DNA of 64,000 bases from a virus, in IMG/VR virus record IMGVR_UViG_3300046804_002503, positions 61,678 to 125,677 of that record; one strand, 5' to 3'. Every line of letters starts with the position of its first letter. Within the stretch, counting starts at the first letter, position 1. Under the pieces are notes generated by a model. The model made no database searches and was not told the DNA's origin. It saw nothing but the letters and a program-made list of their open reading frames with translations. This document shows, piece by piece, positions 38 to 42,357 of the stretch. Both the position numbers and the translations under genes were made by a program.

Positions 38-328
38 TCAATTTGTTGAGGCCAGGGGTTGTTGCCCGGGAAGTTGCTTAGGAATGTGTTTGTCTTCAAT
101 TTCTTTGAGAAGTTCTAGGTTAAGTTCTTTTTGTACACAGGTACAGGTAAGGTAGAATAGAGTATTAGTATCTCTGCCTGTAAAGCCTCTTGCACTACAT
201 TTCTTGCAATTATTTTTGGGTTGTTTTTTAAGGGGTAATTGTCCAAGCCCCATTAATTTAACATCAGATTCTGGTAAATGGTAAAATATACCCGAAAACG
301 CACTAAAAAATAAAATAGTTTTACTCAT
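38..328 (-). CDS. Hypothetical protein with CxxC...CxC (possible Zn ribbon)
   Basis: ORF in an overlapping minus-strand run; CKKC...GF.G...CTC motif. Confidence 0.5.
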   Translation of the reverse strand: MSKTILFFSAFSGIFYHLPESDVKLMGLGQLPLKKQPKNNCKKCSARGFTGRDTNTLFYLTCTCVQKELNLELLKEIEDKHIPKQLPGQQPLASTN

Positions 329-677
329 GGCAATTAATAGTTAATATACTATCCCAAAATTTGTTATTAGCTACCTTGGTTGCGTAAACTTTTAAATAAT
401 GTTCTATTTCCGGTGCCAATTTTGCTAAGGTTTTAATCCTATAATCAAAATAAACTAATCCTTCATCTGGATAAAATTCAATATCATAAGGAATAGGTAT
501 TTCTATTTTATCTTTGTCTCTTTTAGATGAATTAATAATAAATGAAATATAAAAATTCTTTTGATAAAAAAGAATAAGTCTACCTTGTTTATAGGTTTTG
601 TTGTTAAATTCCAACGTTACATTTTTTTGAAGCAAAAATTTACATGCTTCTTCTAAGGTAGATCCATTAATATTCAT
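321..677 (-). CDS. Hypothetical protein
   Basis: 118-aa ORF overlapping both neighbours. Confidence 0.55.
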   Translation of the reverse strand: MNINGSTLEEACKFLLQKNVTLEFNNKTYKQGRLILFYQKNFYISFIINSSKRDKDKIEIPIPYDIEFYPDEGLVYFDYRIKTLAKLAPEIEHYLKVYATKVANNKFWDSILTINCHE

Positions 678-1054
678 TTATCCATAAATTGAGCTTTTTC
701 TTGTGCTGACATTTTAATTAAAATTTCAGAAAAATATTTCCAAAATTCTTCTGGTGTACTGGCTAAAACCTGAACCACACTAGCATTGCCCGCTGGTACG
801 GCCCTCCAGTCTTGCATGAAAATATCATACACAGCTAAAAGATTATAAGATTCAAAATTGTAAGCAGGTGAGTTAGTGGGTAATCTAAAATTTAAAAATT
901 TTAATCCCATTGGAGAATTTAAAATTTCTAAATTTAAAGAACACAGCATACGTCTAGTAGTAGGTCTGTTTGCTCGTTGCATACGTCGAGTAAATCTTAA
1001 CTCTACTACATTTTTAGACAATAGTTGTTTTAACCCATTAACTGATAAGCTCAC
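674..1054 (-). CDS. WYL_2/DUF2693-like SH3 beta-barrel protein
   Basis: LKQLLSKNVVELRFTR...RRMLCSLN...AVYDIFMQDWRAV pattern typical of this family in T4-like phages. Confidence 0.6.
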   Translation of the reverse strand: MSLSVNGLKQLLSKNVVELRFTRRMQRANRPTTRRMLCSLNLEILNSPMGLKFLNFRLPTNSPAYNFESYNLLAVYDIFMQDWRAVPAGNASVVQVLASTPEEFWKYFSEILIKMSAQEKAQFMDK

Positions 1055-1440
1055 TTGGTTGTTTTAGGAGAACAAACTCCAAAAATTCTATCTTCATTTA
1101 AGAAGACAATGTTTTTAAGACCATTTAAATTAGATACTTGTAATCCTCTATCATTGGGAAATACAATAAAATCTCCTTGTTTTACAGTCTTACAGTCAGG
1201 TCCACTTAAAACTACTCTACCAATTCTCCAAGTATGTTGTACAGCTCCCAATGGCACCCAAATACTACCTCTTTTTACTTCTGTACCTTCTTCGTTAATA
1301 TCTACGTACTGGACCATTAAGATATTGTCTAGGACTTTTTCTAATTGCCAATCTTCTAATTCAAAGGCATTTCCTTGATAATGTTCTACTTGGATTTTTC
1401 CACCAATTCTGTCTTCTAAATTTGTAGGCCTATCTATCAT
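1051..1440 (-). CDS. groES: GroES-like co-chaperonin (gp31 analogue)
   Basis: VLDNILMV...KRGSIWVP...GRVVLSGPDCKTVKQGDFIVF...FLNEDRIFGV. Confidence 0.75.
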   Translation of the reverse strand: MIDRPTNLEDRIGGKIQVEHYQGNAFELEDWQLEKVLDNILMVQYVDINEEGTEVKRGSIWVPLGAVQHTWRIGRVVLSGPDCKTVKQGDFIVFPNDRGLQVSNLNGLKNIVFLNEDRIFGVCSPKTTK

Positions 1441-1446
1441 ACTATG

Positions 1447-1836
1447 TTATTTAATTTTAATGTTGAAATCTTCAAGGAGTTGATTATAAACCAATAATTC
1501 TTTTTGTGAAATCTCCATACTAGATGCGTAATTTGTTAATTCTTCTTGTTCTAAATTTTCTTTGCTTTGTTTTTTGATGTAAGAAAATTTTTTATTTACT
1601 TTGGGCAATATTGTTCTGTAAAAATATCCAACACATTCTGGATATTTGTTTAAACAAGTGTGCTTGAGCCATCTGTTTACAGTGACATTAATAATTTGAG
1701 CATAACTATCATCTAACATAGAAAGCCACCTATTCACAATAAAGCTAGATGGCACATTAGATGATGGTTGAATATTATTTTTTTTAATTAACCAATTAAG
1801 GTATGGAAACAAATCGTCTTTAGGTTTTTTAGTCAT
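1447..1836 (-). CDS. Probable clamp loader small subunit (gp62-like)
   Basis: LFPYLNW...FIVNRWLSM...IIN...FY..ILPK.KKFSYIKK resembles the gp62 family; start placed at MTKK (1836), abutting the upstream stop. Confidence 0.55.
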   Translation of the reverse strand: MTKKPKDDLFPYLNWLIKKNNIQPSSNVPSSFIVNRWLSMLDDSYAQIINVTVNRWLKHTCLNKYPECVGYFYRTILPKVNKKFSYIKKQSKENLEQEELTNYASSMEISQKELLVYNQLLEDFNIKIK

Positions 1837-2408
1837 TAAATTACTTTTGTGGTAGCTATGAAACAATCTTTTAAAATGTTTTCAAAGATAGCTTTAACGT
1901 CTTCTGCGAATGATTTTGTATCTGCTTCTGATAAAAATAAAGAAAATGCAAAGGAAGGTGCTTTAGGACCTGCTGAAATATTAATTCCTAAATGACCCAA
2001 AGCTACATTTTCTGAGACTTTGGTAATACTAACACTAGCTTTACCAAAGGTTTCCATACCACTCTTTTTTAACATTAAATCATCACCTCTTACCTCTACA
2101 TCATAAAGGCCGTATGTCTTTTTTCGTAGCAAATTTGCTATTTCCTGAACAAAAAGTCTTTGAAAAAATACTGCTCCGATTGGGTTCATGTTAGGAATTT
2201 CCCAACAAAAATTTAATGCATCATCTGAATAGATAAAATCATTATTAATTTTATCTTCTAGATCTATCAGATTGTCTGTCACATTCATTACACCTCTAGT
2301 AATATATAAAAATCCTAAAGGAGAATTGCCTATATCTTTGTGTACTAATTTATAGGCAAATCTTTGATGTATTAAAGAACCGTCATAATCTTCTTTTACG
2401 TAACTCAT
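1836..2408 (-). CDS. DUF366 family protein (biotin/lipoate-protein ligase-like fold)
   Basis: YDGSLI...G.MNV...LIDLED...IYSDDALNFCWE...QRL...RGDDL...KASVSI...HLGINI. Confidence 0.75.
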   Translation of the reverse strand: MSYVKEDYDGSLIHQRFAYKLVHKDIGNSPLGFLYITRGVMNVTDNLIDLEDKINNDFIYSDDALNFCWEIPNMNPIGAVFFQRLFVQEIANLLRKKTYGLYDVEVRGDDLMLKKSGMETFGKASVSITKVSENVALGHLGINISAGPKAPSFAFSLFLSEADTKSFAEDVKAIFENILKDCFIATTKVI

Positions 2409-2422
2409 ATGTTTATAATAAA

Positions 2423-3103
2423 TTATTTGTTGAATTTTTCTCTAAATTTTATGGCACTAGAATGCCATTCTGGGGTATTCATGCTATCACCTAAACCATG
2501 ATGTGTTACTTTAATAGGTAATACTCCCACAGATGCTTTCTTTTCATTGCAGCGTAAACAAAAAGACAAATCATAATGATGAAAATCAAAGTCTTCGTCA
2601 AAATTTAAACCCTTCTCAAAAGCTTTGTCTACATCTACAGCTATAAAAAGACCATCTATTACCAAAGCTCTGCTTTTAGTAGGTCCAAAAACTGAAGTCC
2701 ATTCATTTCCATCAGCTATGTGAGATACTTCTCCTACCCAATCTTCTCTGTTACTCATTAAATGCCATGCTGTTGGTTTGTTGAGGTCTATTTTCTTAGC
2801 ACCGGCTAATCCAGTCACAACATAAGGAGATTCATTTAATTTTTCTACTAAATAAAAATCATTTATCTCTACATCATCATGAACAAATAAAAGAATTTTA
2901 TTTTTGTGTTCCAGATTATTTAAATAAGAATTATAAACTTTGGACAAACCAGTTTTATTGTCTTTAGTTATTTTAAAATCAAATAATTTTTGCCCATCAC
3001 TATACAATAAGTCTAATTTGTAAAGACTTTTATAAAGAGGACAATTATAAAATTCTTCTAAAGTTTTAGATTGAGTTGCTGATACTATTACTACTTGTTT
3101 CAT
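2423..3103 (-). CDS. GT-A fold glycosyltransferase (Glyco_tranf_2_5-like)
   Basis: GLSKVYN, LLFVHDDV, GLAG, IDGLFIAV, FDEDFDFHHYDLSFC, THHGLG. Confidence 0.8.
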   Translation of the reverse strand: MKQVVIVSATQSKTLEEFYNCPLYKSLYKLDLLYSDGQKLFDFKITKDNKTGLSKVYNSYLNNLEHKNKILLFVHDDVEINDFYLVEKLNESPYVVTGLAGAKKIDLNKPTAWHLMSNREDWVGEVSHIADGNEWTSVFGPTKSRALVIDGLFIAVDVDKAFEKGLNFDEDFDFHHYDLSFCLRCNEKKASVGVLPIKVTHHGLGDSMNTPEWHSSAIKFREKFNK

Positions 3104-4113
3104 ACAGAAGCTAATTGACTTTTAATCCATTGATAAGTGACTGCTAAACCTTCTACTAAAGGTTGTGTAGGTTTCCAATTTAATTTTTCAAAAATAAGCG
3201 TATTATCAGAATTTCTACCCCTTACACCGGTTGGTCCGGCTATATGTTTCTTGGTTAATTTTTTGCCTTCAAAATTACACGCCAGATCTACTAATTCATT
3301 AATTGAAACCATTTCATCTGAACCTATGTTAACTGGTTCAGAGAAATCCGATTCCATTAACCTTCTCACCCCTTCAATACATTCATCAATGTATAAAAAA
3401 GATCTAGTTTGTTTTCCATCACCCCAAATTTCAATTTCAGAAGAAGTAGGTGCACTTAATACTTTACGGCAAATAGCAGCCGGTGCTTTTTCTTTGCCGC
3501 CTTTCCAAGTGCCAAACGGTCCAAAGATGTTATGAAATCTTGCTATTCTAACATTTAATCCTTTATTACGTGCATAACTTAGATATAAACGTTCACTAAA
3601 TAATTTTTCCCAGCCATACTCACTGTCTGGTGCTGCAGGATATGCAGAAGATTCTTTGCAATTAGGATTAGATGGATCTTCTTGATTGTATGCTGGATAC
3701 ATGCAAGCACTGCTAGAATAAAATACCTTCTTAACATTGAATTTGACACTCAATTCTGCTACATTTAAATTAATAGTAGCAGAATTAGTCATTAAGTCTG
3801 CATCGTTTTCACCAGTAAAAATATATCCAGCTCCTCCCATATCTGCTGCTAACTGATATACTTCATCAAAAGCATTTTCTTTTTCTGATAAAGAATGTTG
3901 TTCTGGTGCTAAAAACAAAAGAGAAGTCTTTTCTCGATCACGTAAATCACAAATTACAAATTCATCTGCAGATGAATCACAAAATTCTGGATGTTTTAAA
4001 TCTGCTGCTCTAACCCAATAACCTTCTTGTTTTAAACGGTTAACTAAATGAGAACCGATAAAACCACCGGCTCCTAAAACTAAAGCTTTTTTTTGGTCTT
4101 TTTGATATTTCAT
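3100..4113 (-). CDS. NAD-dependent epimerase, GDP-mannose 3,5-epimerase-like
   Basis: GAGGFIG, QLAADMGGAGYI, SSACMYP, YGWEK, RFHNIFGP, GREK-like GKEKAPAA, GVRGRNSDN. Confidence 0.9.
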   Translation of the reverse strand: MKYQKDQKKALVLGAGGFIGSHLVNRLKQEGYWVRAADLKHPEFCDSSADEFVICDLRDREKTSLLFLAPEQHSLSEKENAFDEVYQLAADMGGAGYIFTGENDADLMTNSATINLNVAELSVKFNVKKVFYSSSACMYPAYNQEDPSNPNCKESSAYPAAPDSEYGWEKLFSERLYLSYARNKGLNVRIARFHNIFGPFGTWKGGKEKAPAAICRKVLSAPTSSEIEIWGDGKQTRSFLYIDECIEGVRRLMESDFSEPVNIGSDEMVSINELVDLACNFEGKKLTKKHIAGPTGVRGRNSDNTLIFEKLNWKPTQPLVEGLAVTYQWIKSQLASV

Positions 4114-4754
4114 ATAAAATAAGGATTTGTGTATTTAAAAGAGTCTTTGACTGTCAAGAAATTATCTTTTAATTCTAAAATTACTCCGTCTTCTTTTATT
4201 CTTTCTGCATTTTCAAATTCTGAAGAGCTAAAGCTGTCTTTTTCTACCCACAAAGAGCTTCCAGCTTTAACTACATAAAATTTCTTACCAGTAAAAACCC
4301 AACTAGTAAGCAATCCTTGCAGCTTGGAATATGTTTGAGATATATTATGGTTTTTTGTTAAAAGATAAGGAATAATAGATGAATCTACTTCAAATGAAGA
4401 GTGTTCTGGAAAAGATTTAAAGTTAGAAATAATACCATTATGAGCTACATAATACGAATCATTGTTAAATGGATGTGTGTGAGATTCTTTCCAGATAGTT
4501 TCTGTAGAATTGGTAGGTGCTCTTGAATGAAATGCAAAGTAAGAAAAATTACAAACATTATCTAAATCTTTAATTCTTTGTTTTAAAAGATTTAAATTAA
4601 AAATTCCTTTAGCTTTTTCTACTAAACTAATACATTCTTTATCTTCTTGAAAGGATAAAGCCATAAACCCAGATGAGTGAGACCCTCTTTTTAAATTTAA
4701 TTTGTAAAGAGTATATGCCTTCTCTAAATCTGAACTGCCTGCAATTCCACACAT
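4110..4754 (-). CDS. Stand-alone class II (Ntn) glutamine amidotransferase
   Basis: N-terminal MCGIAG, RG..SSG, HSRAPT, HPF, HNGII, DS motifs. Confidence 0.85.
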   Translation of the reverse strand: MCGIAGSSDLEKAYTLYKLNLKRGSHSSGFMALSFQEDKECISLVEKAKGIFNLNLLKQRIKDLDNVCNFSYFAFHSRAPTNSTETIWKESHTHPFNNDSYYVAHNGIISNFKSFPEHSSFEVDSSIIPYLLTKNHNISQTYSKLQGLLTSWVFTGKKFYVVKAGSSLWVEKDSFSSSEFENAERIKEDGVILELKDNFLTVKDSFKYTNPYFI

Positions 4755-4758
4755 ACAA

Positions 4759-5505
4759 TTATATTAATTCACAATTATATTTTTGCCAATCTATTTCTCT
4801 GGAGTATTTGATTGGATCTATTTTACCTGCTTGAATCCATCCAGCTATGCGGGCTGAACAAGAAGGGCATTCTCCACATGCTAAATCTGTACCATAACTA
4901 TTGTAACAAGTGTGTGTTTTTGAAAAATCTACACCTAATTCTAACCCATATTCTATGATTTGCTTTTTATCTAAGTCTATAAGAGGTGCTTCTATTTGAA
5001 TTAAATTTCTACGATTGAGGCTTAGGATTTGGTTTAATAAGCTTCTAAATTCTTGAGTACAATCCCAATAACCCGAAGTATCATCTGCTTTTGCTGCACC
5101 ATAAAAGATCGTATCTGCTTTTGCACTCTCTGCTAAAGATGCTGCTATTGATAAAAACATCATATTACGATTGGGTACATATGCTGATGTTTGAGGATCT
5201 CCTATAACATCTCTCATTTTTGGAACATCTAGGTCTAAATTGGTCAAAGAACTGTCTACTAGAGCTGCTCCGATTGACGTTAAATCTATAAATGTATGTT
5301 TAATTCTTTCTGAACCTGCTTGTTTGTTAAAATTCAAAGCATACTGCTGTGCTAATCTTAATTCTCTACCGTGTCTTTGGTTGTAATCAAAAGAAATTGC
5401 CTGAACTAACTCATATTTTTTCAAGGCATGATGTAAAACTACGGTACTATCCATACCTCCACTGTATAACACTAGACAAGACTTCGGAGAATTTTCCACA
5501 TTCAT
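4759..5505 (-). CDS. queC: 7-cyano-7-deazaguanine (preQ0) synthase
   Basis: SGGMDS PP-loop, FDYNQRH, YVPNRN, GYWDC, TCY...CGECPSC; start reassigned to MNVEN (5505) on promoter position and to avoid overlap with the divergent gene. Confidence 0.95.
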   Translation of the reverse strand: MNVENSPKSCLVLYSGGMDSTVVLHHALKKYELVQAISFDYNQRHGRELRLAQQYALNFNKQAGSERIKHTFIDLTSIGAALVDSSLTNLDLDVPKMRDVIGDPQTSAYVPNRNMMFLSIAASLAESAKADTIFYGAAKADDTSGYWDCTQEFRSLLNQILSLNRRNLIQIEAPLIDLDKKQIIEYGLELGVDFSKTHTCYNSYGTDLACGECPSCSARIAGWIQAGKIDPIKYSREIDWQKYNCELI

Positions 5506-5539
5506 ACGGTAAATATAGTATATTCTAATGAAAACTCTA
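5506..5539. promoter_or_regulatory. Back-to-back promoters for queC (-) and the 5528 ORF (+)
   Basis: Minus strand: TAGAGT-16-TATATT-6-ATG. Plus strand: TAGTAT-6-ATG, and TAAATA at 5510-5515. Confidence 0.5.
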
Positions 5540-6082
5540 GCTAAATCATCTAAAAAAAATATTGATTCATTAAATGAGGTGTCTCGTTTACTGAAAAACA
5601 TGCAAAGTAATGTTCAAGAAGAGGCTTCAACACCTTTTATTAAAAGTTTTCTTAAATGTTTGGTAAAAGAGGCAGATGAATTACCCCCTCAAGCACCGGA
5701 AGATTTTACACCAGAAAAAAATAAAGAGGATTTTGAAGGGGCTATGGAGCCGAGTACTCCAGAAGGTGAGTTTGATATTCAAGGTGTAGACCCACAAGCA
5801 CTGGCAGATGCTATTTCTTCTGTTCAAGAATGGTCAACTAAGCTAGATCAGTTTGTCCATTTCTTAAATGACCCTAAATCTCAATCTTTACATAAACTGT
5901 TAGCAGACTTTGACAGACCCGGTTCTTTAGTTAAAGGTATTACAAGAAAAACTTCTGATGGTATTACTCGTGTAGCTGGAGAAATTGCTAAATTGAAGCA
6001 AACTTTAGATGGATTTATTAATTTGGCTCCCAAGAAACAAAGAGATACAGAAGCTTTAGTGGCTACTGGTGCTGCTGGATAG
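5528..6082 (+). CDS. Hypothetical protein (possible virion/internal head protein)
   Basis: 184-aa ORF with acidic region and helical C-terminus; TAAATA upstream. Confidence 0.55.
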   Translation: MKTLAKSSKKNIDSLNEVSRLLKNMQSNVQEEASTPFIKSFLKCLVKEADELPPQAPEDFTPEKNKEDFEGAMEPSTPEGEFDIQGVDPQALADAISSVQEWSTKLDQFVHFLNDPKSQSLHKLLADFDRPGSLVKGITRKTSDGITRVAGEIAKLKQTLDGFINLAPKKQRDTEALVATGAAG

Positions 6083-6083
6083 T

Positions 6084-7049
6084 CTAAACATATAAAGATT
6101 TTAATATAAAATCATAAGGTATTTCGTTTGTTCCTTCTTTAACAGCCCATTCATTGAAATCTTTATATGGACTGTTAGTCGGCCAACGGAATACCTTTTG
6201 TTTTGCCTGTATTAACTCTAAAATTTTATCTTTAGAAGCTTGATCTTTCTGTGGATTGTCTAAAACCCATATCTTTTCATGAAAGGTGAACTCTGATAAT
6301 TGTTTTTTCTGAGTATCATTCATAGTTAGTCCAGCTAAGCATACACCGTTTTTTACAAACATCGCGTCTATCGGGCCTTCAAATATAAAAATATAATCTA
6401 AATTGGTATCTATTCTTTCTAAACCAAAACAAGTCTTGTCATATCCAATTTTATTAAGATAACGAGGTTCTGAACCATCTAATGCTCTGGTTTGATAGAA
6501 TAAAATTTTACGATCTCTGCTCAAATAAGGTATACATAAACGGTTTTTATGAAAGTGATCTGTTAAACTAATATAATAAGAAGAACTTCTATTAATTGCT
6601 GTGTCTAATTTTCTTTCTTTTAGATAATCTAAAGCTTGGATGTAATAAGGGTTATTCTTGTAATGCTGATATTGTTGATTATCTAGAAGATTTATTGAAT
6701 CGTAAGGAAGGAGCGGCTTCTCTTTTTTGTTATTCTTGCCAAAAGAATTCATTTGTCTAGACAGATCAAAACCACTCTCCTTGTTTTGAATCTCTAATTC
6801 TATTTCTTGTCTAGTTAAACCACTGGAAGCTTGAATCCAACTCAAAGCATTCCATGATTTAGAACAATTAAAACAATAAAAAGTATTAGTAGATGGATAA
6901 AAAAAGAGTCTTTTCTTTTTCAACCAACTTCTACCTTCTCTGCAAATGTTGCAAGAAGCATTATATGTACCGTCAAATTTACGAAAAACCGGTTCTCCGG
7001 CATATGTATAAAATTTGCTTAATACATACTGACCTGGTAACTGCCTCAT
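6084..7049 (-). CDS. gp61: DNA primase (T4 gp61-like)
   Basis: Zn finger CNIC...CFNC; RLCIPY...YQTRAL; TOPRIM FEGPIDAMF, LDN, KDFNEW. Confidence 0.9.
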   Translation of the reverse strand: MRQLPGQYVLSKFYTYAGEPVFRKFDGTYNASCNICREGRSWLKKKRLFFYPSTNTFYCFNCSKSWNALSWIQASSGLTRQEIELEIQNKESGFDLSRQMNSFGKNNKKEKPLLPYDSINLLDNQQYQHYKNNPYYIQALDYLKERKLDTAINRSSSYYISLTDHFHKNRLCIPYLSRDRKILFYQTRALDGSEPRYLNKIGYDKTCFGLERIDTNLDYIFIFEGPIDAMFVKNGVCLAGLTMNDTQKKQLSEFTFHEKIWVLDNPQKDQASKDKILELIQAKQKVFRWPTNSPYKDFNEWAVKEGTNEIPYDFILKSLYV

Positions 7050-7084
7050 AAAAGCAGTATATAGTAATTTTATTCTTGAATCAA
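7050..7084 (-). promoter_or_regulatory. Sigma70-type promoter, leaderless geometry (primase)
   Basis: TTGATT-17-TATACT-6 nt-ATG. Confidence 0.7.
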
Positions 7085-8017
7085 GCTCTTAGATTTAAAA
7101 ATATTTGAATAAATGTTTTTAAAATCTACACTATCTTCTAAAGGAGATCTAGCTGTCATACCACCCATAGACATTCTTTGTAACCTTGATAATTCAGCTT
7201 GTTGAGCACGGTCTAAATCTGCTGCTGCATCCTCTTCATCACCTAATTCATCTAAAGTAGAACCAGAGGCAGAACGTGGAACTGCTATCCACCCTTCATC
7301 TGTTCTCTTAACTAATCCTTTTCTGCCCAATTCTGCTGCGATACTTCTTAAATAAGATTTAATAGAAGCATCAGATTCAGAATGCTGAGAGGGGATTAAA
7401 GATCTATCTATTTTAGACACTAATTCATTGTTTTCTAATGGACCTTCTGCTTCAATAAGATCTAATAAAGTTTGCTGCAAATCAGTAAGGTCTAATTCGG
7501 CTCCTTCTGTATCAGAAAATTCTCCGGAAGCCTTTGGTTCTGGTTCTGATTCTTTTGATTCTGGCTCTTCGGAGGCTTCTGGAGCTTCTTCTGTACTAGA
7601 TTCTGGTGAATCTGTAATTTCTGGAACTTCTGAATCTTCAAATTCTTCTGGTTCACCTTGACCATCATTTACTTCTGAAGGTTTTTCTGGTTTAAATCCG
7701 AAATCAAAGATAGTCTGGCTAAGGGTTCTAGTCCAATATTCTGCTGCAGTACCTCCAAATCCTCTATTTCTAAGAAAAGTTCTAATAGAATCTTTTAATT
7801 CCTGATAATCTATTTCAGAATTGGCTCTGTCTTTTAAAAATTCTCCTAGATATTGAAGCATTTGTGCTCCTGTATATTTTCCAGCTTGTCCACCAAACTT
7901 TTCTTTACTAGCAAATGCTGGAGATTTTAAAACTTCACCGGGAATACCTACTCCACCTCGTTTAGGAGCAGCCATTTCTTCTAAAGTACTTTCGCAAATA
8001 TTGTCAAATAAACTCAT
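7070..8017 (-). CDS. Acidic hypothetical protein with possible winged-helix domain
   Basis: E/P/S-rich linker followed by LTDLQQTLLDLI...ELGRKGLVKR...W; TAAATA 6 nt upstream of ATG. Confidence 0.55.
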   Translation of the reverse strand: MSLFDNICESTLEEMAAPKRGGVGIPGEVLKSPAFASKEKFGGQAGKYTGAQMLQYLGEFLKDRANSEIDYQELKDSIRTFLRNRGFGGTAAEYWTRTLSQTIFDFGFKPEKPSEVNDGQGEPEEFEDSEVPEITDSPESSTEEAPEASEEPESKESEPEPKASGEFSDTEGAELDLTDLQQTLLDLIEAEGPLENNELVSKIDRSLIPSQHSESDASIKSYLRSIAAELGRKGLVKRTDEGWIAVPRSASGSTLDELGDEEDAAADLDRAQQAELSRLQRMSMGGMTARSPLEDSVDFKNIYSNIFKSKSLIQE

Positions 8018-8026
8018 ATATTTTAT

Positions 8027-8665
8027 TTATGGAGTCCATATGTCAGAAAGTAAACTTTCTTTCTCTCCATAAGCGTGTCCTAAATCTGTAATATATAAAT
8101 TTGTTAAAGCTATACGTTGTTCTGGTGTTCCAAAAATCTCTATAAAAGCAGGTGAATCTACTTTAGGAAAGATTCTACCATCTCCGTGAACATAAGATTG
8201 CATAAAGGCTTTAAAAATGTTGTCTATTTCTTCTCTGTAAATAGGATCCGTATCTCTTACACCATCTTCTACTAGATTAACCGGAGAGGCTTTAGTGATT
8301 GGTAAAAAGAAAATGATATCAAAAAGTTTTAAAGATTCTTTAACAATTAAACGACAGTTATCTAAAAATTTTTCAGACACTTTATCGTGAAGATGAAGCC
8401 AAGAAGAATACACTAAATTGTCTAATACACATCTATCAAAAATAATATTATCTGATTTTGAATATTGTGTGGCTTGATCTACTAAAAAGTCTAAAATAAT
8501 TTGTTGTGATTCTTCTGATCCTAATCGATTAATAGGAATATTTTTTTCTTTAATTAAGTCTCTATAAGTCTTTTCTGGAGTAGAATACATGCTCCATTTC
8601 TGGAGAAAGTCTTTTACATATGTGCTCTTACCAATACACTGTGTACCTACAACTGCTATTTTCAT
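8027..8665 (-). CDS. P-loop nucleoside/nucleotide kinase-like protein (AAA_28/NadR-type)
   Basis: GTQCIGKST Walker A, FDRCVLD, DGVRD. Confidence 0.75.
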   Translation of the reverse strand: MKIAVVGTQCIGKSTYVKDFLQKWSMYSTPEKTYRDLIKEKNIPINRLGSEESQQIILDFLVDQATQYSKSDNIIFDRCVLDNLVYSSWLHLHDKVSEKFLDNCRLIVKESLKLFDIIFFLPITKASPVNLVEDGVRDTDPIYREEIDNIFKAFMQSYVHGDGRIFPKVDSPAFIEIFGTPEQRIALTNLYITDLGHAYGEKESLLSDIWTP

Positions 8666-8669
8666 AATA

Positions 8670-8936
8670 TTAATTTAATAGCAATTCTGGAAAATACTCG
8701 GTATATTTTTTAGATAAATTACTTGTAGACCACAAATTGTCATTTGATATGGTATAGGCATTTGTAACTGGCACATTTTGAAATTGTTGTCTTAATTTTA
8801 TAGCCAAATTACTAATATAGTCTATATCTTCCTTGTAGGAGTGTAAACAAACATCTTCACTAGAAGAAAATAATAATCCTTCTAAAATAACTTGTATATC
8901 TTTTTTAGATAATTTAATCGTGTATTCTTTTTCCAT
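8670..8936 (-). CDS. Hypothetical protein
   Basis: 88-aa ORF in operon-like run. Confidence 0.5.
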   Translation of the reverse strand: MEKEYTIKLSKKDIQVILEGLLFSSSEDVCLHSYKEDIDYISNLAIKLRQQFQNVPVTNAYTISNDNLWSTSNLSKKYTEYFPELLLN

Positions 8937-8949
8937 TTAAGGATTTTAC

Positions 8950-9684
8950 CTATAAAGAGGCATCTGTCAACTCTGTTTGAGAAACTATTTCCTGAATTTT
9001 ATTAGTAATATCTTCAGACATTTTTTCTATTTCCATTAAATCTGCAGCACCACTTTGTAAAAGAGTTTCGATTTTTTTATAATCTGTTGTGACATCAGCT
9101 ATCATATCAGAAACTGTAGTATCTAAATCTTTTTTTGGAGTCAATATTGCTTTGTAGGCCAAATTTAATAATGCTACACTTCCGTAATCTTTGATTTCGT
9201 CTGTAGTAAATTCTTCTTCATCCTTAATGTTTTTGGGTGGGTTACTCTTTCTTATGAGGGCATATATGAGCTTTAATATTTCTGCATTATCAGAAGAAGA
9301 ATTTGGATTCAACATTTGTAATCGGTTACGCATTTTCCGAGCTTCGGGATATTTTTCTAAAATACTATCTATATCTGTGTAAAGACAAGCTACAGATATT
9401 TTTATTAATTTAACATTAGTTATTAAATCTTCTTTTGGTAATTCTGTTTTTTTATTCGCACTGGATGAAGAATCTGGAGTTGGAGAAGGAGGAGGAGGAG
9501 GAGCTAGATTTGGCTCTAAAGACTGCTGGGGTGGTCCAGAAGGTGCCGGAGCTGGAACCTGAGGAGCCTCTTGTTCTAATAAGAAATCTGACAAAACTGT
9601 ATCAAATTTTGTTGTATACGGAAATTCTTTGCTGTAAATTTTGTTATATTTTTCTAAAATAGAATTAAAAGAAGAGGGTTTCAT
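8950..9684 (-). CDS. Proline-rich hypothetical protein (possible virion protein)
   Basis: LLEQE followed by poly-Pro linker; TAAATA upstream. Confidence 0.55.
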   Translation of the reverse strand: MKPSSFNSILEKYNKIYSKEFPYTTKFDTVLSDFLLEQEAPQVPAPAPSGPPQQSLEPNLAPPPPPSPTPDSSSSANKKTELPKEDLITNVKLIKISVACLYTDIDSILEKYPEARKMRNRLQMLNPNSSSDNAEILKLIYALIRKSNPPKNIKDEEEFTTDEIKDYGSVALLNLAYKAILTPKKDLDTTVSDMIADVTTDYKKIETLLQSGAADLMEIEKMSEDITNKIQEIVSQTELTDASL

Positions 9685-9707: not shown

Positions 9708-10190
9708 ATGAAAAGTCTAATAGAGCAATTATATACACCTAAGGCTGTATCTTTAATAAGAGATCTATACAAAGAAGATCCTAATGCTAGAGAATCTTTC
9801 TATGAAGCATTTGGGAATAAAATTTTAGAAAAACAATCAGAATTTTTGTCTCAAAAACCTTTAGACATATTAATGTTAATATGTGCCACTGCCAAATTTG
9901 CCTCTAACCTACATGAATCTCAAAATGTAGCTGTAATAATTCATCGAAGAATAGTAGAACCCAATCCTCTACCTTATATTTTAGATGATAGGGGTTTAGA
10001 ACTAGCAGAGAAAACCTTTGTGTCTTTAGCTTTTTTCTACCCAGCTATGGAAAAAAGGTGGAAAAAGGGGGGTCCACATCCAGATTTTTACAAACAATAT
10101 TCCAAAAGATTGTTTGAAACAAATAATTTAGAAGATTTGGCTCACCATTATGAAAAATGGTTAAATTTTTTAACTGAAATATTTGTATAA
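9708..10190 (+). CDS. Hypothetical protein
   Basis: 160-aa ORF filling the gap; TATATT 7 nt upstream of ATG. Confidence 0.55.
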   Translation: MKSLIEQLYTPKAVSLIRDLYKEDPNARESFYEAFGNKILEKQSEFLSQKPLDILMLICATAKFASNLHESQNVAVIIHRRIVEPNPLPYILDDRGLELAEKTFVSLAFFYPAMEKRWKKGGPHPDFYKQYSKRLFETNNLEDLAHHYEKWLNFLTEIFV

Positions 10191-10191
10191 A

Positions 10192-11556
10192 TTAACCTGT
10201 AATTTCTTTAATTACGTTTCCATAAACATCTGTGAGGCGAAAGGGTCTGCCGTTGTATGAATATGTGAGCTTAGTGTGATCAAATCCCATTAATTGGAGA
10301 ATGGTAGCATGTAAATCATGAACATGTACCTTATCTTTTTCAGCCTTGCCACCAGTTTCATCTGTTTCACCATATCTTTGACCACCTTTAACTCCACCAC
10401 CAGCCATCCAGACACTAAATGCTTTGCCATTGTGGTCTCTTCCCGGAGCACCTGCTGAACCTCCTGCTGTAACCGTACGACCAAATTCTCCACCCCAAAC
10501 AATTAACGTAGAGTCTAACAAGCCTCTTTGCTTGAGATCTGTAATAAGAGCCGCAATGGCTTGATCATGGGTCTTAGTAGTCCTGGGCATTGCTTCTTTA
10601 ATATTTTCGTGGTGATCATAACCACCAATGTTTACCTGAACAAAGCGCACTCCTCGCTCTACTAACCGTCTAGCAATTAACAAACGTGCTCCGTTTGGAT
10701 TGACGCCGTACATTTCTTTAATGTTTTCCGGTTCTTTGGTTAAATCAAAAACATCTGTTGCTTCTGTTTGCATTTTAAATGCAGTTTCAAACGCTTCTAT
10801 GCGTGCCTCAAATTGAGCATCACGCTGAACATTTTGCATGTGAATTTCGTTTATGGTCTTAGAAAAGTCTAATTGACGACGTTGACGGTCTAAGCCGGAA
10901 AATTGGCTTCTAATATTGTTAATTAATTGATCAGCCGTGGCTCCTGGGCGATAATCTACATTGCTGCCTTGGAACATGCCTGGTAAAAATGCACTTTGTC
11001 TCGATACCGAGGAGCCATTTAAGCTAATAAAACCAGGCATGTTTTGATTTACGGTTCCCAGACCATACACAATCCAACTACCTAAGCTAGGTTTAGGCAA
11101 TTGAGCACTTCCCGTGTGCATTACTTTAGCAGCAATGCCGTGATCAGGAATTTCTGCAAACATAGAATTAATAATTGCCATATGATCTGCATGTTTGCTT
11201 AATTCAGACCACACTTCTGAGATTTCTATTCCTGATTTACCACTTTTATTAAATTGAAATGGAGATGCTAGTAGTTCCCCGTGTTCCATTTTCTTGCCAT
11301 TATTTTTCTGAAGTTCTGGTTTATAGTCAAACGTATCAACACTAGAAGGTGCTCCACCTGCAAATAGATGAATGATAGACTTAGCTTTAACTGGAAAATG
11401 AGACTGTTTGGGAAGGGTAGGAGAAATAGCTTCTGCTGTATGGGGATTTATTCCATACAGAGAGGCCAATGCTAATCCTCCTATACCGCTTCCAAAGCTA
11501 GTTAAAAATTCTCTTCGAGTTGTTGGTTCAGAGGGGTGGTATCCACAATCTTTCAT
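10192..11556 (-). CDS. DUF1501 family protein with twin-arginine signal
   Basis: TRREFL Tat motif; AKSIIHLF..GAPS..DTFDYKP; ARRLVERGVRFVQ; LITDLKQRGLLDSTL..WGGEFGRT; GRDH; HDLHATIL..G.DH..LT. Confidence 0.92.
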   Translation of the reverse strand: MKDCGYHPSEPTTRREFLTSFGSGIGGLALASLYGINPHTAEAISPTLPKQSHFPVKAKSIIHLFAGGAPSSVDTFDYKPELQKNNGKKMEHGELLASPFQFNKSGKSGIEISEVWSELSKHADHMAIINSMFAEIPDHGIAAKVMHTGSAQLPKPSLGSWIVYGLGTVNQNMPGFISLNGSSVSRQSAFLPGMFQGSNVDYRPGATADQLINNIRSQFSGLDRQRRQLDFSKTINEIHMQNVQRDAQFEARIEAFETAFKMQTEATDVFDLTKEPENIKEMYGVNPNGARLLIARRLVERGVRFVQVNIGGYDHHENIKEAMPRTTKTHDQAIAALITDLKQRGLLDSTLIVWGGEFGRTVTAGGSAGAPGRDHNGKAFSVWMAGGGVKGGQRYGETDETGGKAEKDKVHVHDLHATILQLMGFDHTKLTYSYNGRPFRLTDVYGNVIKEITG

Positions 11557-11566
11557 AATATGTTGT

Positions 11567-11574
11567 TATTTATA
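11567..11574 (-). promoter_or_regulatory. T4-type late promoter TATAAATA upstream of DUF1501 gene
   Basis: Exact TATAAATA on the minus strand, 10 nt before ATG; a gp55 sigma is encoded in the window. Confidence 0.55.
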
Positions 11575-11596
11575 ATTAAATTTGTATAATAATTCA

Positions 11597-11761
11597 ATGA
11601 AGAATTTTTGGTACATTTGGTCTAAAGCTTTAGGTGAAAAGGCAAGTAATAGTGACAGTGTTTCAGATAAAGTTGCTATTATAAGAACTGCTATTGTTTT
11701 GGTTTATGTAATAACAAACTTTTTTATTGTGGCAGGAATTATTCGACACTGGAATCATTGA
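11597..11761 (+). CDS. Small membrane protein (54 aa), not in the ORF track
   Basis: Translates as MKNFWYIWSKALGEKASNSDSVSDKVAIIRTAIVLVYVITNFFIVAGIIRHWNH; resembles a small protein of T4-like cyanophages (W.KALGEK...NxFIVAG.IRHW); TTGTTA-16-TATAAT-6-ATG upstream. Confidence 0.75.
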   Translation: MKNFWYIWSKALGEKASNSDSVSDKVAIIRTAIVLVYVITNFFIVAGIIRHWNH

Positions 11762-11762
11762 A

Positions 11763-12356
11763 TCAATCTAAGATCAAAGCTTCAAACTCTTCAGGTGTTT
11801 TAAGGTTTAATACTTCTTTTCTATTATTGTTCAGAAAACTATACGACAAAACACTGTCTTCTAGATTACAAGAAAAGGTGGATTTCTTTTTTTGAATTAC
11901 TCCACATCCGTGATCAACATTTACTACAAATCCTTCATAATCTTTTTGATTTTTGCGAAATTTGTACACACTTTTCCACACTGTACCACACCAATGTGGA
12001 TCTTCTAATGCTTCGGTGTCTGGGCTGCAATCGTGTAAAACTATTGTTCCGTTTTCAGATAAATGTTTAATACAATTAGCCAAATCTCTATCTACTTGTT
12101 CTTCTGTATGAAGGCCATCTATAAAAATAATATCATATTTAACATCAGAACTTAAAGAAGAAAAAAACTCATCTGAGGTTAGTTGATATCCTTTATCTGG
12201 TGGGTTATAAGAACAAGAGCTGACTCCTGGATCTACTCCAGTTTTTTCAGTACAATTTACAGCATTAAAGCAATCTTTGTTAAATATTCCTATTTCTAAA
12301 TAACTAGTATATTTGTATTTATTTATAAGGTCTTGAATAATAGTTATTCTATTCAT
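11763..12356 (-). CDS. Class I SAM-dependent methyltransferase (Methyltransf_24-like)
   Basis: YLEIG, GVDP, TSDEFF, DIIFIDGLH, IVLHDC, WCGTVWK, DHGCG. Confidence 0.8.
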   Translation of the reverse strand: MNRITIIQDLINKYKYTSYLEIGIFNKDCFNAVNCTEKTGVDPGVSSCSYNPPDKGYQLTSDEFFSSLSSDVKYDIIFIDGLHTEEQVDRDLANCIKHLSENGTIVLHDCSPDTEALEDPHWCGTVWKSVYKFRKNQKDYEGFVVNVDHGCGVIQKKKSTFSCNLEDSVLSYSFLNNNRKEVLNLKTPEEFEALILD

Positions 12357-12369
12357 GATTTGAGTTAAA

Positions 12370-13641
12370 TTAAGCCAAAAGATCTGTTATAACCTTTCCG
12401 TCTTTAACTATAGCAGAGGGACGCCCACCAGGAGCCATCAAATGTTTATCTGGATCTATGCCTAATTGGGTATACATAGTTGCTGCAAGGTTTTCTACAG
12501 AAACTGGATTCTCTTCTACATCTGCTCCGGTAGCATCTGAAGAACCGTAAATCAATCCTTTCTTAAATCCTCCACCTGCAAATGCTACAGAGAACACTCT
12601 GGGCCAGTGATCGCGGCCTGCATCTTTGTTAATCTTAGGTGTCCTGCCAAACTCAGAGCTAACCATTACAAGAGTAGAATCTAACATTCCTCTTTGCTCT
12701 AAGTCTGTAATCAAAGCTGCATATGCTTGATCAAAAAATGGAAGTTGTTTACTAATTCCGCCAGCGATATTAGTATGCATATCCCAACCTCCATAAGTTA
12801 CGGACACAAATCGTACTCCGGCTTCTACTAATCTGCGGGCCATGAGTAAACGTTGACCAGCTTGGTTCAAGCCGTAAGAATTTTTCATTTTATCGGATTC
12901 TTTTTGCAAATCAAAAGCTTCTCTAGCATGGGGTGAAGAAATCATAGCATAAGCTTTTTGATAAAATTCATCCATAGCAGCTACATTATCATTAGCTTCC
13001 ATGTACTTAAAGTGGCTATCTACTGTATCTAGAATACTTCTTCTTTTTTCAAAGCGAGCTGTATCTATTCCTTCTGGTAAATTTAAATCTCTTACCTTGA
13101 ATTTTTCAGATGCTGGATCAGATCCTAAACTAAAAGGTCCGTAAGCTTTGCTGAGATATCCAGTGTCTGCTGGATCTGAAAGTTTTTGTGGCACACAAAC
13201 ATAAGCCGGCAAACTATTTCTATCTTTAAGTTCATGAGCTACAACTGAACCAAACGAAGGATACTCCAAAGCTGGTGAAGGACGGTATCCTGTAAACATA
13301 GATATAGTACCTCTTTCGTGTGCAGCTTCACCATGAGTCATGGAGCGAACAACGGTTAATTTGTCTGCAATCTTGGCTGTATGTTTAAAATACTCGGAAA
13401 AATGTACTCCAGGAATAGCAGTTTTAACCGTTCCAAGTGGACCCCTATACTCAATAGGAGCATTGGGATGGGGGTCCCAGGTTTCTTGGGCTGCAGCACC
13501 GCCGGGTAAAAAGATATGAATTACCGATTGAGCCTTTGCAGACAAATTTTGGGGGGATTGAGCTTGAAGTTTGAAGTATTCACCCATGGTTAAACCTAAA
13601 CCACCTACAAGCCCACTGTAAATGAAGTCTCGTCTGTTCAT
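12370..13641 (-). CDS. DUF1501 family protein with twin-arginine signal (second subfamily)
   Basis: MNRRDF; VIHIFLPGG..QETWDP; ARRLVEAGVRFV; WDMH; EFGRTPKIN..GRDHWP; AGGG. Confidence 0.92.
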   Translation of the reverse strand: MNRRDFIYSGLVGGLGLTMGEYFKLQAQSPQNLSAKAQSVIHIFLPGGAAAQETWDPHPNAPIEYRGPLGTVKTAIPGVHFSEYFKHTAKIADKLTVVRSMTHGEAAHERGTISMFTGYRPSPALEYPSFGSVVAHELKDRNSLPAYVCVPQKLSDPADTGYLSKAYGPFSLGSDPASEKFKVRDLNLPEGIDTARFEKRRSILDTVDSHFKYMEANDNVAAMDEFYQKAYAMISSPHAREAFDLQKESDKMKNSYGLNQAGQRLLMARRLVEAGVRFVSVTYGGWDMHTNIAGGISKQLPFFDQAYAALITDLEQRGMLDSTLVMVSSEFGRTPKINKDAGRDHWPRVFSVAFAGGGFKKGLIYGSSDATGADVEENPVSVENLAATMYTQLGIDPDKHLMAPGGRPSAIVKDGKVITDLLA

Positions 13642-13645
13642 ATAG

Positions 13646-13930
13646 TTATTTATCGTTTACTTGTAGCAAATAATTAGAACCTACTTCTAACATATTTTTA
13701 AAATATTTCATTACATCCTTGGTAAATTCTATTTGAGCATTGTCTGGAACATGAGAAGTGTATCTTTCATATACTAGATACATCATAGCTGCTACTGTGG
13801 TTGCGTCAAATTCGTGATTTTCTACATCTCTAAAACAAGGTAACCAGACTTCTCCGTCTTGCATTTTAATCAAACCTAATTTACCAACTATTTTTAGACT
13901 TTCTGCGTCTAAATCTTTTTCATTGCTCAT
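13646..13930 (-). CDS. Hypothetical protein
   Basis: Likely start MSNEKD (13930), overlapping the upstream stop. Confidence 0.5.
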   Translation of the reverse strand: MSNEKDLDAESLKIVGKLGLIKMQDGEVWLPCFRDVENHEFDATTVAAMMYLVYERYTSHVPDNAQIEFTKDVMKYFKNMLEVGSNYLLQVNDK

Positions 13931-14744
13931 AATTAAAAAAATCAAAATACCACTTAAAATTATTATAGATAGTATTAGACAAAGATTCACCTAAAATTTC
14001 ATTGTAATAATTAGCAATTGGTAAAACTTCTTTTTTTATAGTGTGTAAATTTCTTATACCAAAAACTTCATCATCTTCAAACGTAATTTGATCTACTAAA
14101 GAAAAATTGTGCTCAAAATTTTCTATCTTTAAAAAATTATAGATATTTTTTAATGTATTTTTAGGATTAGATGTTAAATCCTCAAATTTAATAAACAAAA
14201 TTTTATCTCTAAAGGGTTGATTTATTATGTCAAATATTCGATTAATAGACAATCCAATAGGAGGTTTAGAAAGGTTTTGCTCTACTCTTTTTATTGTAGT
14301 AGTACCTTTTAATTCTAAGTAATTTTTGTTATCTGGATTAAGAATAGAATTTTCTCTTTCTATTTTTTCCATAGAAGCTAGTATGCTTCTTAAATCTCTT
14401 ACCAAACAAATTATCTTCGGATTGGGATAAAATGAATTTAAAAAATTGTAATTTATAGCCCAGCCTCTACTTTTATCTATTACATATTTTTTATTTGTAA
14501 TGGCTCTAAAATAACCTTCTAGACCAGCTTTGCAGAAATTTTTAAATGCTGTAGAGACTGTATTAAAATCTTGGGCTTTAAATTCTATAGACTTAGAAAA
14601 ATTAAGTTGAGCACCGTACAATAATTCTAAAACTCCACTAGTAGGTGTTACATAAAAATTAGGATTTTGACCTAAAATATTTTGCAACAAAGTACTTCCA
14701 GATCGTGGAAGAGAAGAATTAAAGAATATGGTTGGTGTTGTCAT
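13920..14744 (-). CDS. Sulfotransferase family protein
   Basis: 5'-PSB loop SLPRSGSTLL, DKSRGW, 3'-PB motif KIICLVRDLRSILAS, FEDL..P. Confidence 0.85.
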   Translation of the reverse strand: MTTPTIFFNSSLPRSGSTLLQNILGQNPNFYVTPTSGVLELLYGAQLNFSKSIEFKAQDFNTVSTAFKNFCKAGLEGYFRAITNKKYVIDKSRGWAINYNFLNSFYPNPKIICLVRDLRSILASMEKIERENSILNPDNKNYLELKGTTTIKRVEQNLSKPPIGLSINRIFDIINQPFRDKILFIKFEDLTSNPKNTLKNIYNFLKIENFEHNFSLVDQITFEDDEVFGIRNLHTIKKEVLPIANYYNEILGESLSNTIYNNFKWYFDFFNYEQ

Positions 14745-15432
14745 CTAAAGGTATAAATTCACAATAAGCAAACCTTCTGTCTGATGAAATCACCGGATAA
14801 AAATAATCATTTTTTAATTTAACTATAGACCTATAATGTTTAACATGAAAAATATCATCCATTAACAAAACTTTTGTTTTAAGTTTTTCTGGATCTAATT
14901 TCATAAACTGTAGAAACTCTAAATATCCTACACCCCCAGCAGAATCTAAAAATATTAACTGTCGAGTATGATTGTTTATTAAGTCCCACAGTTTATTTTC
15001 TTCTGGAGGTAATCCATCATCAAAACCGCAAATCTCTTGTAAATAAAAAGATTTGGCATTTTCCCCGCCGTCAACATTTATTTTCTTGGTAAAAACTAAT
15101 TCAGACTTATAAACAGAATCTTCTTCTATAAATTTACGCATTTCATTTATAGGCAAAGACGAAGCATGTAATACCTTTACATTAGAATAATTTTTTAAAT
15201 TATTTGATGCTACTTGATAATGTGATTTACAACTTTCTAAAGAAATTACATTTAAACCAGTTTCTGCAAAAACCTTAGTAGAACCCAAGCCATTAAAGGC
15301 TCCGGTTTCAATGATCTCTATTAGAGAATGTTTTTTAATCAAAAGATTAACGGTATCTACAAATAAAGAACTTTTTAAATTTATATATTCTGGTTGGTTT
15401 AGTAAATCTGACATATTAAATCGGTTTATCAA
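14719..15432 (-). CDS. SAM-dependent methyltransferase-like protein
   Basis: IIETGAFNGLGST motif I, LDSAG, LMDD..HVKH. Confidence 0.6.
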   Translation of the reverse strand: MINRFNMSDLLNQPEYINLKSSLFVDTVNLLIKKHSLIEIIETGAFNGLGSTKVFAETGLNVISLESCKSHYQVASNNLKNYSNVKVLHASSLPINEMRKFIEEDSVYKSELVFTKKINVDGGENAKSFYLQEICGFDDGLPPEENKLWDLINNHTRQLIFLDSAGGVGYLEFLQFMKLDPEKLKTKVLLMDDIFHVKHYRSIVKLKNDYFYPVISSDRRFAYCEFIPLDDNTNHIL

Positions 15433-16327: not shown

Positions 16328-16329
16328 GT

Positions 16330-17470: not shown

Positions 17471-17493
17471 ATAGGATTATTATTAAAATATTT

Positions 17494-42302: not shown

Positions 42303-42308
42303 TTTTAT

Positions 42309-42336
42309 TAGCAATCTAAAAAACTTACTCTATAAT
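42309..42336 (+). promoter_or_regulatory. Putative promoter for folE2
   Basis: TAGCAA-16-TATAAT. Confidence 0.45.
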
Positions 42337-42357
42337 AAAAACCAACCATCAAATAAT

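Follow-up and report, generated by a model that had tools for sequence, protein, structure and literature searches.

The locus and its setting

We analysed a 64,000-nt stretch of viral DNA (the window), which forms the last 64 kb of the 125,677-bp IMG/VR contig IMGVR_UViG_3300046804_002503 (~31% GC; CheckV completeness 58%). Near its beginning lie genes for QueC (7-cyano-7-deazaguanine synthase), a stand-alone class-II glutamine amidotransferase (Gat), a GDP-mannose 3,5-epimerase homologue (GME), a GT-A fold glycosyltransferase (GT) and a protein of the DUF366/COG2029 family. The original prediction, made from the sequence alone, had proposed all five as a candidate pathway that may make a 7-deazaguanine base and decorate it with a sugar and/or an acyl group. 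The view that we favour, at a probability of roughly two in three, is that the run is a composite of two things and not one pathway: a deazaguanine system that includes DUF366, and a separate sugar pair.

The five open reading frames (ORFs) are co-oriented and tightly spaced, as had been described, all of them on the minus strand (Table 1): a 4-nt gap separates QueC from Gat, Gat and GME as well as GME and GT overlap by 4 nt, and a 14-nt gap lies between GT and DUF366. The queC start was set at 5505 and not at the longer ORF start at 5601, which fits the N-termini of relatives. The claim that queC has its own promoter did not hold up, as a sigma-70 scan of positions 1000-6300 gave 21 sites where shuffled sequences led us to expect 23.5, and none upstream of 5505 was convincing. 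Past DUF366 the packed minus-strand string continues through a 139-aa ORF and then a GroES/gp31-like gene, and the main ORFs from 38 to 9684 are all on the minus strand, with the ORF divergent from queC as sole exception. Since the packed, co-oriented string extends well beyond the five genes, tight spacing alone is no evidence of shared function in this genome.

The replication genes are of T4 type (UvsX-like, gp41-like, gp61-like, gp32 and Mre11/Rad50-like) and the family-B polymerase shares ~30% identity with the gp43 proteins of T4-like cyanophages, which marks this uncultured virus as a distant T4-like phage. A megablast search of isolated phages with window positions 1400-9000 gave zero matches, and no tRNA genes were found in the 64-kb window.

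Table 1. Genes of the run, their divergent neighbour and further deazaguanine-related genes of the window
Feature	Positions	Strand	Remarks
QueC (7-cyano-7-deazaguanine synthase)	4759-5505	-	248 aa from second ATG; PF06508, TIGR00364
Gat, stand-alone class-II (Ntn) glutamine amidotransferase	4110-4754	-	214 aa; starts MCGIAG
GME, GDP-mannose 3,5-epimerase homologue	3100-4113	-	accessory, sporadic; PF01370, match to 2c59
GT, GT-A fold glycosyltransferase	2423-3103	-	PF13712
DUF366/COG2029 protein	1836-2408	-	PF04017
ORF divergent from queC	5528-6082	+	184 aa; start codons 22 nt apart
QueE (7-carboxy-7-deazaguanine synthase, radical SAM)	29697-30449	+	best NCBIfam matches all QueE families
DpdA3-type DNA guanine transglycosylase homologue	34403-35314	+	303 aa; directly after family-B polymerase
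ThyX	35315-36046	+	directly after DpdA3
QueD (PTPS family)	37603-38079	+	PF01242 E 1e-19; 43% identity to immuto QueD
FolE2 (type I GTP cyclohydrolase folE2)	42265-43200	+	PF02649 E 5e-65

A probable split Gat/QueC pair

QueC matches PF06508 (E 4e-59, 200 bits against a cut-off of 22) and TIGR00364 (176 bits against a cut-off of 150). Across a 16-sequence alignment S15, G16, G17, D19 and S20 are invariant, as is C200, and the C-terminal cysteine cluster has the consensus CYxGxExACGxCxSC; the SGGxDS residues are the PP-loop ATP-binding motif. Invariant residues of Gat in a 12-sequence alignment are M1, C2, R23, G24, H105, N106, G107 and D124, and the N-terminal cysteine, the HNG motif and the aspartate are those of Ntn class-II amidotransferases, with HNG as the oxyanion motif. 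A Gat profile matches the glutaminase domain of GlmS at E 1.4e-10, and hhalign places Gat on residues 1-204 of the Gat-QueC protein of phage 9g at 96.7% probability (E 4e-10); QueC of the window is 28% identical to the QueC domain of that protein. Here the two are separate ORFs, with a stop codon between them and the order QueC then Gat, and likewise in all relatives.

Including the window, 22 viral contigs were seen to carry Gat. In 19 of these QueC is no more than 4.5 kb away; as for the rest, two are cut by contig ends and one (L093) is without QueC within 6 kb. A viral search with Gat alone for related loci returned one locus. Vibrio phage 2.275.O (MG592671) has a stand-alone, full-length Gat homologue directly after QueC (27% identity, 99% coverage), and in the QueC tree the QueC of that phage groups with those of the phage clade of the window (support 99/96). 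The proposal that QueC and the stand-alone amidotransferase are a split counterpart of fused Gat-QueC is thus upheld by the alignment to 9g and by the independent pair in the Vibrio phage. Some N4-like phage proteins named 'GFAT' also matched Gat and were set aside: the matching parts are the N-terminal domains of proteins 667 aa long, which are encoded in amidoligase clusters and are unrelated to que genes.

Because Escherichia coli with 9g Gat-QueC and DpdA yields dG+, according to PMC6884629, the split Gat/QueC would by analogy make G+ or a near relative. The product of QueC and Gat together with the DpdA3 homologue of the window is best inferred to be dG+ or a near relative.

The remaining deazaguanine genes

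The five functions of phage 7-deazaguanine DNA modification (FolE, QueD, QueE and QueC plus a DpdA; Hutinet 2019) are all encoded in the window. QueE scores E 3e-12 with TIGR03365, below the cut-off of that family, and is 21% identical (E 9e-8) to QueE of Flavobacterium phage vB_FspM_immuto (immuto). The gene at 34403, which the original prediction had singled out, proved to be a DpdA3 homologue: by tblastn it is 40.5% identical (E 1e-53) to the immuto 'DNA guanine transglycosylase' and 36% identical (E 1e-40) to a protein of Campylobacter phage CP220, while the phage phiST was not among the matches. Both immuto and CP220 are named in PMC10516641 as DpdA3 phages with fully replaced G.

The noted lack of QueF extends beyond the window, as tblastn with immuto QueF gave no match at E <= 1 in the whole 125.7-kb contig, itself 58% complete. 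Immuto DpdN (formyltransferase) likewise found no homologue; DpdL and DpdM were not searched for. ThyX, the gene after DpdA3, is missing together with DpdA3 from the syntenic slot in two que-less relatives (contigs G006 and G007, described below).

DUF366, a probable member of the deazaguanine system

The DUF366 protein matches PF04017 (E 1e-20, 74.5 bits against a cut-off of 29.9), and 12 residues conserved across the family were mapped in the numbering of the window protein. The family is small and always stand-alone, with 158 representatives at E <= 1e-3, of which the 150 listed are all <=237 aa, and the largest viral cluster in the ESM Atlas has 2368 members; neither the cluster members nor the protein-atlas look-up added anything on function. 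The AlphaFold2 model (pLDDT 91) has as best Foldseek match the unannotated PH0223 structure 2ddz (E 4.5e-12, TM 0.75), followed by biotin and lipoate protein ligases (BPL and LplA; E ~2e-5, TM ~0.5). The biotin/lipoate-ligase-like fold that had been attributed to the family is thus borne out by the predicted structure; at the sequence level, a profile search found only 2ddz and no match to BPL or LplA. A whole-word literature search for DUF366, PF04017 and COG2029 gave no paper, its coverage leaving aside the supplementary tables of PMC6884629 and PMC10516641. PH0223 is listed in a two-hybrid table (PMC1414084), and other literature matches to PH0223 or 2DDZ are unrelated uses of the string.

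A link between DUF366 and que genes had been suggested for archaea and turned out much stronger than stated. In the 37 viral loci sampled through DUF366, a GroES/gp31-like gene lies downstream of it in every case, and QueC-Gat-GT lies directly upstream in only some, which at first sight is contrary to a que link. A search of whole contigs showed that, among five longer ones without que genes beside DUF366, four have QueC elsewhere, in the order RecA-QueC-(1-4 kb)-Gat-GT-DnaB. Loci sampled through GT are unbiased for DUF366, and there DUF366 is present in 10/10 with QueC/Gat as against 1/21 without, the exception (L054) being a divergent copy.

Cellular genomes tell the same story. When bacterial genomes were scanned with a cellular DUF366 alignment, at least 556 stretches matched, and the best 80, which come from several phyla, were kept as loci. 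A QueC homologue lies immediately upstream of DUF366 on the same strand in 59 of these, and at least one que gene within 4.5 kb in 68; most often the genes run QueD-QueC-DUF366-QueE-FolE. One phylum was sampled evenly (121 genomes, G011-G135): QueC was found in 14/14 genomes with DUF366 versus 21/107 others (Fisher p 3e-9), and in 12 of the 14 it adjoins DUF366. Sixteen QueCs that neighbour DUF366, drawn from at least seven phyla, group in a single clade (support 98/95). Other viral lineages were reached with a second viral scan using a cellular-type DUF366 alignment, which gave 20 loci: que/dpdA genes lie within 7 kb of DUF366 in 17, a DpdA of 9g type or DpdA3 type is present in 12, and QueC adjoins DUF366 in 11, counting one locus (L193) with fused Gat-QueC. 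The GT, GME and stand-alone Gat of the window were found in none of these 20.

As the link recurs in bacteria and in other phages, beyond the clade of the window, we regard it as robust. That DUF366 sits in preQ0 operons and dpdA clusters without GT, GME or stand-alone Gat argues for a role in the core pathway and not in a phage-specific acyl decoration. DUF366 is in our view a candidate for an unrecognised accessory of the core 7-deazaguanine pathway, one whose probable target is the free base, at the QueC step or close to it. Given the ligase-like fold of the model, the most natural guess, and only a guess, would be that, in the manner of a ligase, it activates the carboxylate CDG or binds it.

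Some DUF366 loci differ in composition. With regard to DUF366 as a replacement for QueC, four of five contigs with QueE-DpdA3-DUF366 are without a detected QueC, these contigs being 22-41% complete, while on the fifth the contig end truncates QueC. Four loci (L197, L198, L200 and L204) are arranged as QueE-DpdA3-like-DUF366 and lack QueC within 7 kb; a search of the contigs (22-41% complete) gave no QueC for three of the four, nor for L189. One locus (L032) has two DUF366 copies, at 10001-10576 and 17148-17702, with QueD and QueE nearby. A homologue of an immuto 'phosphoribosyltransferase' recurs between QueD/QueE and QueC in viral loci L190-L192, L194-L196 and L199, as a further companion of the pathway to which no role is assigned. 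Among isolated phages the sole DUF366 match is in Microcystis phage MaAM05, a doubtful record that was not counted as phage evidence given its bacterial-looking neighbours (SecDF, GlyS, FliM); the segment (MW495066.1, 106558-126959; L001) also holds MtgA, OmpA and PomA and looks like bacterial DNA in a phage record.

The glycosyltransferase and the epimerase

GT matches PF13712 (Glyco_tranf_2_5; E 1e-8, 35 bits against a cut-off of 27). Invariant in its alignment are HDD at 75-77, a DxD-type motif for metal and nucleotide-sugar, and 22 other residues. The AlphaFold2 model (pLDDT 95) has UDP-bound majastridin (2qgi, 2e-10) as top Foldseek match, then 300+ generic GT-A chains, and tblastn with GT gave no match in isolated phages.

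GT is also found where the que genes are not. The order Primase-GT-u139-GroES-like, u139 being the 139-aa ORF, occurs without QueC, Gat and DUF366 in 20 contigs, and all 25 invariant GT residues are kept in the 10/10 que-less loci that were aligned. The contigs G006 (114 kb) and G007 (74 kb) carry a syntenic PolB-p136-RecA-DnaB-DHH-gp32 block, and in both of them DpdA3, ThyX, QueD, QueE, QueC, Gat and DUF366 were not found, a FolE2-like gene being kept in G007. Since the catalytic residues are intact in que-less loci, GT appears to be maintained without phage-made deazaguanine. A glycosyltransferase of a DNA base should co-occur with the modified base; this one is retained in the 20 que-less loci, and in G006 and G007.

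The identity of the epimerase is confirmed by phmmer, which aligns residues 6-334 of GME with the Arabidopsis GDP-mannose 3',5'-epimerase 2c59 at E 2.7e-100, the next family being UDP-glucuronate decarboxylase at E 1.6e-24; the PF01370 match has E 5e-41, and the N-terminal nucleotide-binding motif GAGGFIGS is visible in the translation. GME stands inside the module in only two of the 22 Gat-bearing contigs, the window and L052, where it occupies the same slot and is 80% identical. The nearest relatives, L003 and L004, have QueC-Gat-GT-DUF366 but no GME, and in L014 and L015 GME lies beside DUF366 with QueC-Gat-GT placed between RecA and DnaB. Loss independent of the que genes, which had been named as a sign against the joint pathway, was thus seen for GME, missing in L003 and L004, and the same independence for GT, kept without que genes; it was not seen for DUF366. 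With two of the three genes varying independently of the que genes, a joint decoration of the base by epimerase, GT and DUF366, as had been proposed, is not supported. The simplest reading of GT and GME is a sugar module for an acceptor other than the deazaguanine base.

The window holds further genes of this kind. Between an Mre11-like gene (20001-21068) and a Rad50-like gene (27882-29687) lie some nine ORFs of ~250 aa at 21065-27851 on the plus strand, several of them glycosyltransferase-like (phrog_2456/1579, weak GT2, DUF5672, weak GT47). A 440-aa glycosyltransferase (phrog_7162) precedes the polymerase at 30485-31807 and is conserved across the clade.

A composite model and its alternatives

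From the gene identities, synteny and co-occurrence we infer the following about the final base, about what Gat and DUF366 do and about what GT acts on. FolE2, QueD, QueE and QueC would build preQ0, starting from GTP. Gat, as a separate protein, would deliver glutamine-derived ammonia to QueC, as in the fused 9g protein, and so shift the outcome towards the amidine G+ (or ADG/preQ0). The DpdA3 homologue would then swap the base into phage DNA after replication, which would protect it from restriction. DUF366 would be a recurrent accessory of the QueC step, most likely through nucleotide-dependent binding or activation of the carboxylate intermediate CDG or through hand-over of the substrate or product of QueC, and would act on the free base, before insertion. 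The second system would consist of GT, conserved across the clade with or without que genes, beside which GME would have been inserted in a few phages, most likely supplying a GDP-L-sugar for a target other than deazaguanine. What stands of the original prediction is therefore the assignment of the que genes, Gat and DpdA and the tie of DUF366 to que genes; the joint glyco/acyl hypermodification is not supported.

Several points weigh against this model or narrow it. The similarity of Gat to the 9g protein is remote, plain BLASTP giving a weak E of 0.001. The phage QueC falls outside the clade of bacterial DUF366-adjacent QueCs. A signature of tRNA-guanine transglycosylases (TGT) was not detected for the DpdA3 homologue: the contig has no PF01702, and PDB searches with the single DpdA3 sequence or with a 4-sequence profile gave no TGT match, a relationship that for DpdA3 is reported in PMC10516641 as detectable by HHpred only. 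From sequence, dG+, dPreQ0 and dADG are indistinguishable. The viral contigs are all fragments (19-58% complete), and que genes are judged absent from vacant syntenic slots, not from whole genomes. Three changes (bootstrap range 3-4) are needed to explain the que-less state on a primase tree with 23 distinct rows, and strongly supported branches force only one, so that the co-loss of DUF366 with the que genes could reflect few events or a single one. Finally, GT is the immediate neighbour of Gat in 22/22 Gat-bearing contigs, and the adjacency holds in both gene orders and at two positions (Primase-GroES and RecA-DnaB), which a GT unrelated to the que module would leave unexplained.

It is this last point that keeps a small share of our confidence with a glycosylated base. 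Were the five genes one pathway, QueC and Gat would make an amidine or amide base, GT would add an L-sugar supplied by GME, and DUF366 would add or activate a further group, which we consider unlikely. Beyond the Gat-GT adjacency, it would account for the place of GME, which in the window overlaps Gat on one side and GT on the other by 4 nt each and which occupies the same slot in L052, and GT is by residues and model an intact GT-A enzyme with one Foldseek match, among many, to a nucleoside glycosyltransferase (AvpGT, 1.3e-6). The que-less loci argue the other way, since GT has 25/25 invariant residues in 10/10 of them and is kept in G006 and G007, which are without DpdA3 and que genes; so do the rarity of GME in the module (2/22) and its place by DUF366, apart from QueC-Gat-GT, in L014 and L015. 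Neither GT nor GME lies beside DUF366 in the other viral (0/20) or the bacterial loci (0/80), and our literature search, at the level of paper listings, gave no report of a glycosylated deazaguanine in phage DNA. In que-bearing members, such a pathway would have GT glycosylate dG+ or dADG inserted by DpdA3, GME feed a GDP-L-sugar in two phages and DUF366 prepare the acceptor, a doubtful scheme. Que-less relatives would have to use the same GT on another acceptor, and, as only the Gat-GT adjacency calls for this scheme, we give it little credence; if true, the base would be the first sugar-bearing 7-deazaguanine in any DNA.

Two further alternatives concern DUF366. Its adjacency might be positional only, the gene belonging to the core of the GroES/gp31-like neighbourhood and serving some other purpose, such as morphogenesis. 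The GroES-like gene does follow DUF366 in 37/37 loci sampled through it, and DUF366 stays there when QueC-Gat-GT lie between RecA and DnaB (G001-G004), but that slot lacks it in the 20 que-less contigs, where the 139-aa ORF and the GroES-like gene are both retained, and in bacteria and other phages it lies inside que/dpdA clusters, mostly without a GroES-like neighbour; we think this quite improbable. DUF366 might also be a non-orthologous substitute for QueF that turns preQ0 into preQ1, in which case the phage, in whose contig QueF was not found, would carry a preQ1-type base. Among the 35 QueC-positive genomes of the phylum sample, 13 have DUF366 only, one has both, 12 have QueF only and nine neither (Fisher p 0.004), and four of five DUF366-bearing Bacillota/Myxococcota genomes have a bacterial TGT and no QueF above the cut-off. 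Yet QueF is present in three of five further DUF366 genomes of other phyla, hence in 4/10 hand-picked genomes in total, and viral loci L190-192, L195 and L201-202 carry QueC-DUF366-FolE-QueF-DpdA together. DUF366 is moreover present in the archaea Methanocaldococcus jannaschii and Methanosarcina acetivorans, and archaea insert preQ0, not preQ1. A biotin-ligase-like fold would also offer no obvious redox cofactor site. We therefore reject the substitution, which seems to us very improbable. The near exclusion of DUF366 and QueF is a feature of the sampled phylum and not of others, and 9/35 of its QueC-positive genomes have neither.

Comparison with known systems and significance

The system of the window resembles several known ones in part. 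With the dG+ system of phage 9g (FolE, QueD, QueE, Gat-QueC and DpdA1; PMC6884629) it shares a common logic of a preQ0 pathway, a class-II Gat/QueC and a DNA transglycosylase. Unlike 9g, the window has QueC then Gat as split genes, a transglycosylase of DpdA3 and not DpdA1 type, FolE2 in place of FolE, and in addition DUF366. The DpdA3 phages described in PMC10516641 carry other bases, fdPreQ1 in immuto, dADG in CP220 and dDG in Cellulophaga phage phiST, and DpdA3 is reported there to allow complete G replacement. Unlike these three, the window has Gat and DUF366, and QueF and DpdN were not found; because Gat and DUF366 stand in place of QueF and DpdN, its final base should differ from theirs. 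Vibrio phage 2.275.O shares with the window a QueC followed by a stand-alone, full-length Gat homologue, and differs in having QueF, FolE and a COG1738 transporter in its que cluster, in the lack of a GT homologue and of a DUF366 match, and in a que region without an annotated GME.

Bacterial queD-queC-DUF366-queE-folE operons (Desulfosporosinus, Carboxydothermus, Nitrospira, Melainabacteria and others) likewise have DUF366 by QueC, but, unlike the window, no Gat, GT, GME or DpdA nearby and a QueC of a separate clade; they presumably serve queuosine in tRNA. The catalytic domains of BPL and LplA, and PH0223 (2ddz), resemble DUF366 in predicted fold only, there being no sequence match to BPL or LplA. 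For a sugar on a modified base there are precedents in the glucosylated hydroxymethylcytosine of T4 and in the eukaryotic queuosine glycosyltransferases, which act on a 7-deazaguanine of tRNA. Unlike in these cases, nothing ties the GT of the window to nucleic acid, and it is kept in que-less relatives.

The pathway to preQ0, queuosine and archaeosine, with its offshoots in phage DNA, is considered well mapped. With its split Gat/QueC and its DpdA3, the system adds a new variant to the phage 7-deazaguanine systems already known, and DUF366, a family so far without a named function, could add a step or factor to the textbook pathway. The finding also defines an abundant uncultured T4-like clade that joins a high-efficiency DpdA3 with a split Gat/QueC and has dropped the system in some members, which makes it a natural comparison set for the costs and benefits of deazaguanine DNA. 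The case is, in addition, a warning against taking tightly packed phage genes for one pathway.

Other genes of the contig

The 184-aa ORF divergent from queC keeps its place and orientation in relatives, at 35-54% identity. Positions 10192-14744 of the window (minus strand) encode two DUF1501 proteins (E 5e-135 and 2e-117), a Methyltransf_24 protein and a sulfotransferase, a metabolic set unusual for a phage. In the part of the contig outside the window (numbered on the full contig, G000:C1), two radical-SAM proteins with an N-terminal SPASM domain are encoded at 12142-13302 (+) and 15289-16491 (-) (L042 and L041). Between them, at 14594-15250, lies an Asp/Asn beta-hydroxylase-like protein, which suggests peptide or other radical chemistry.

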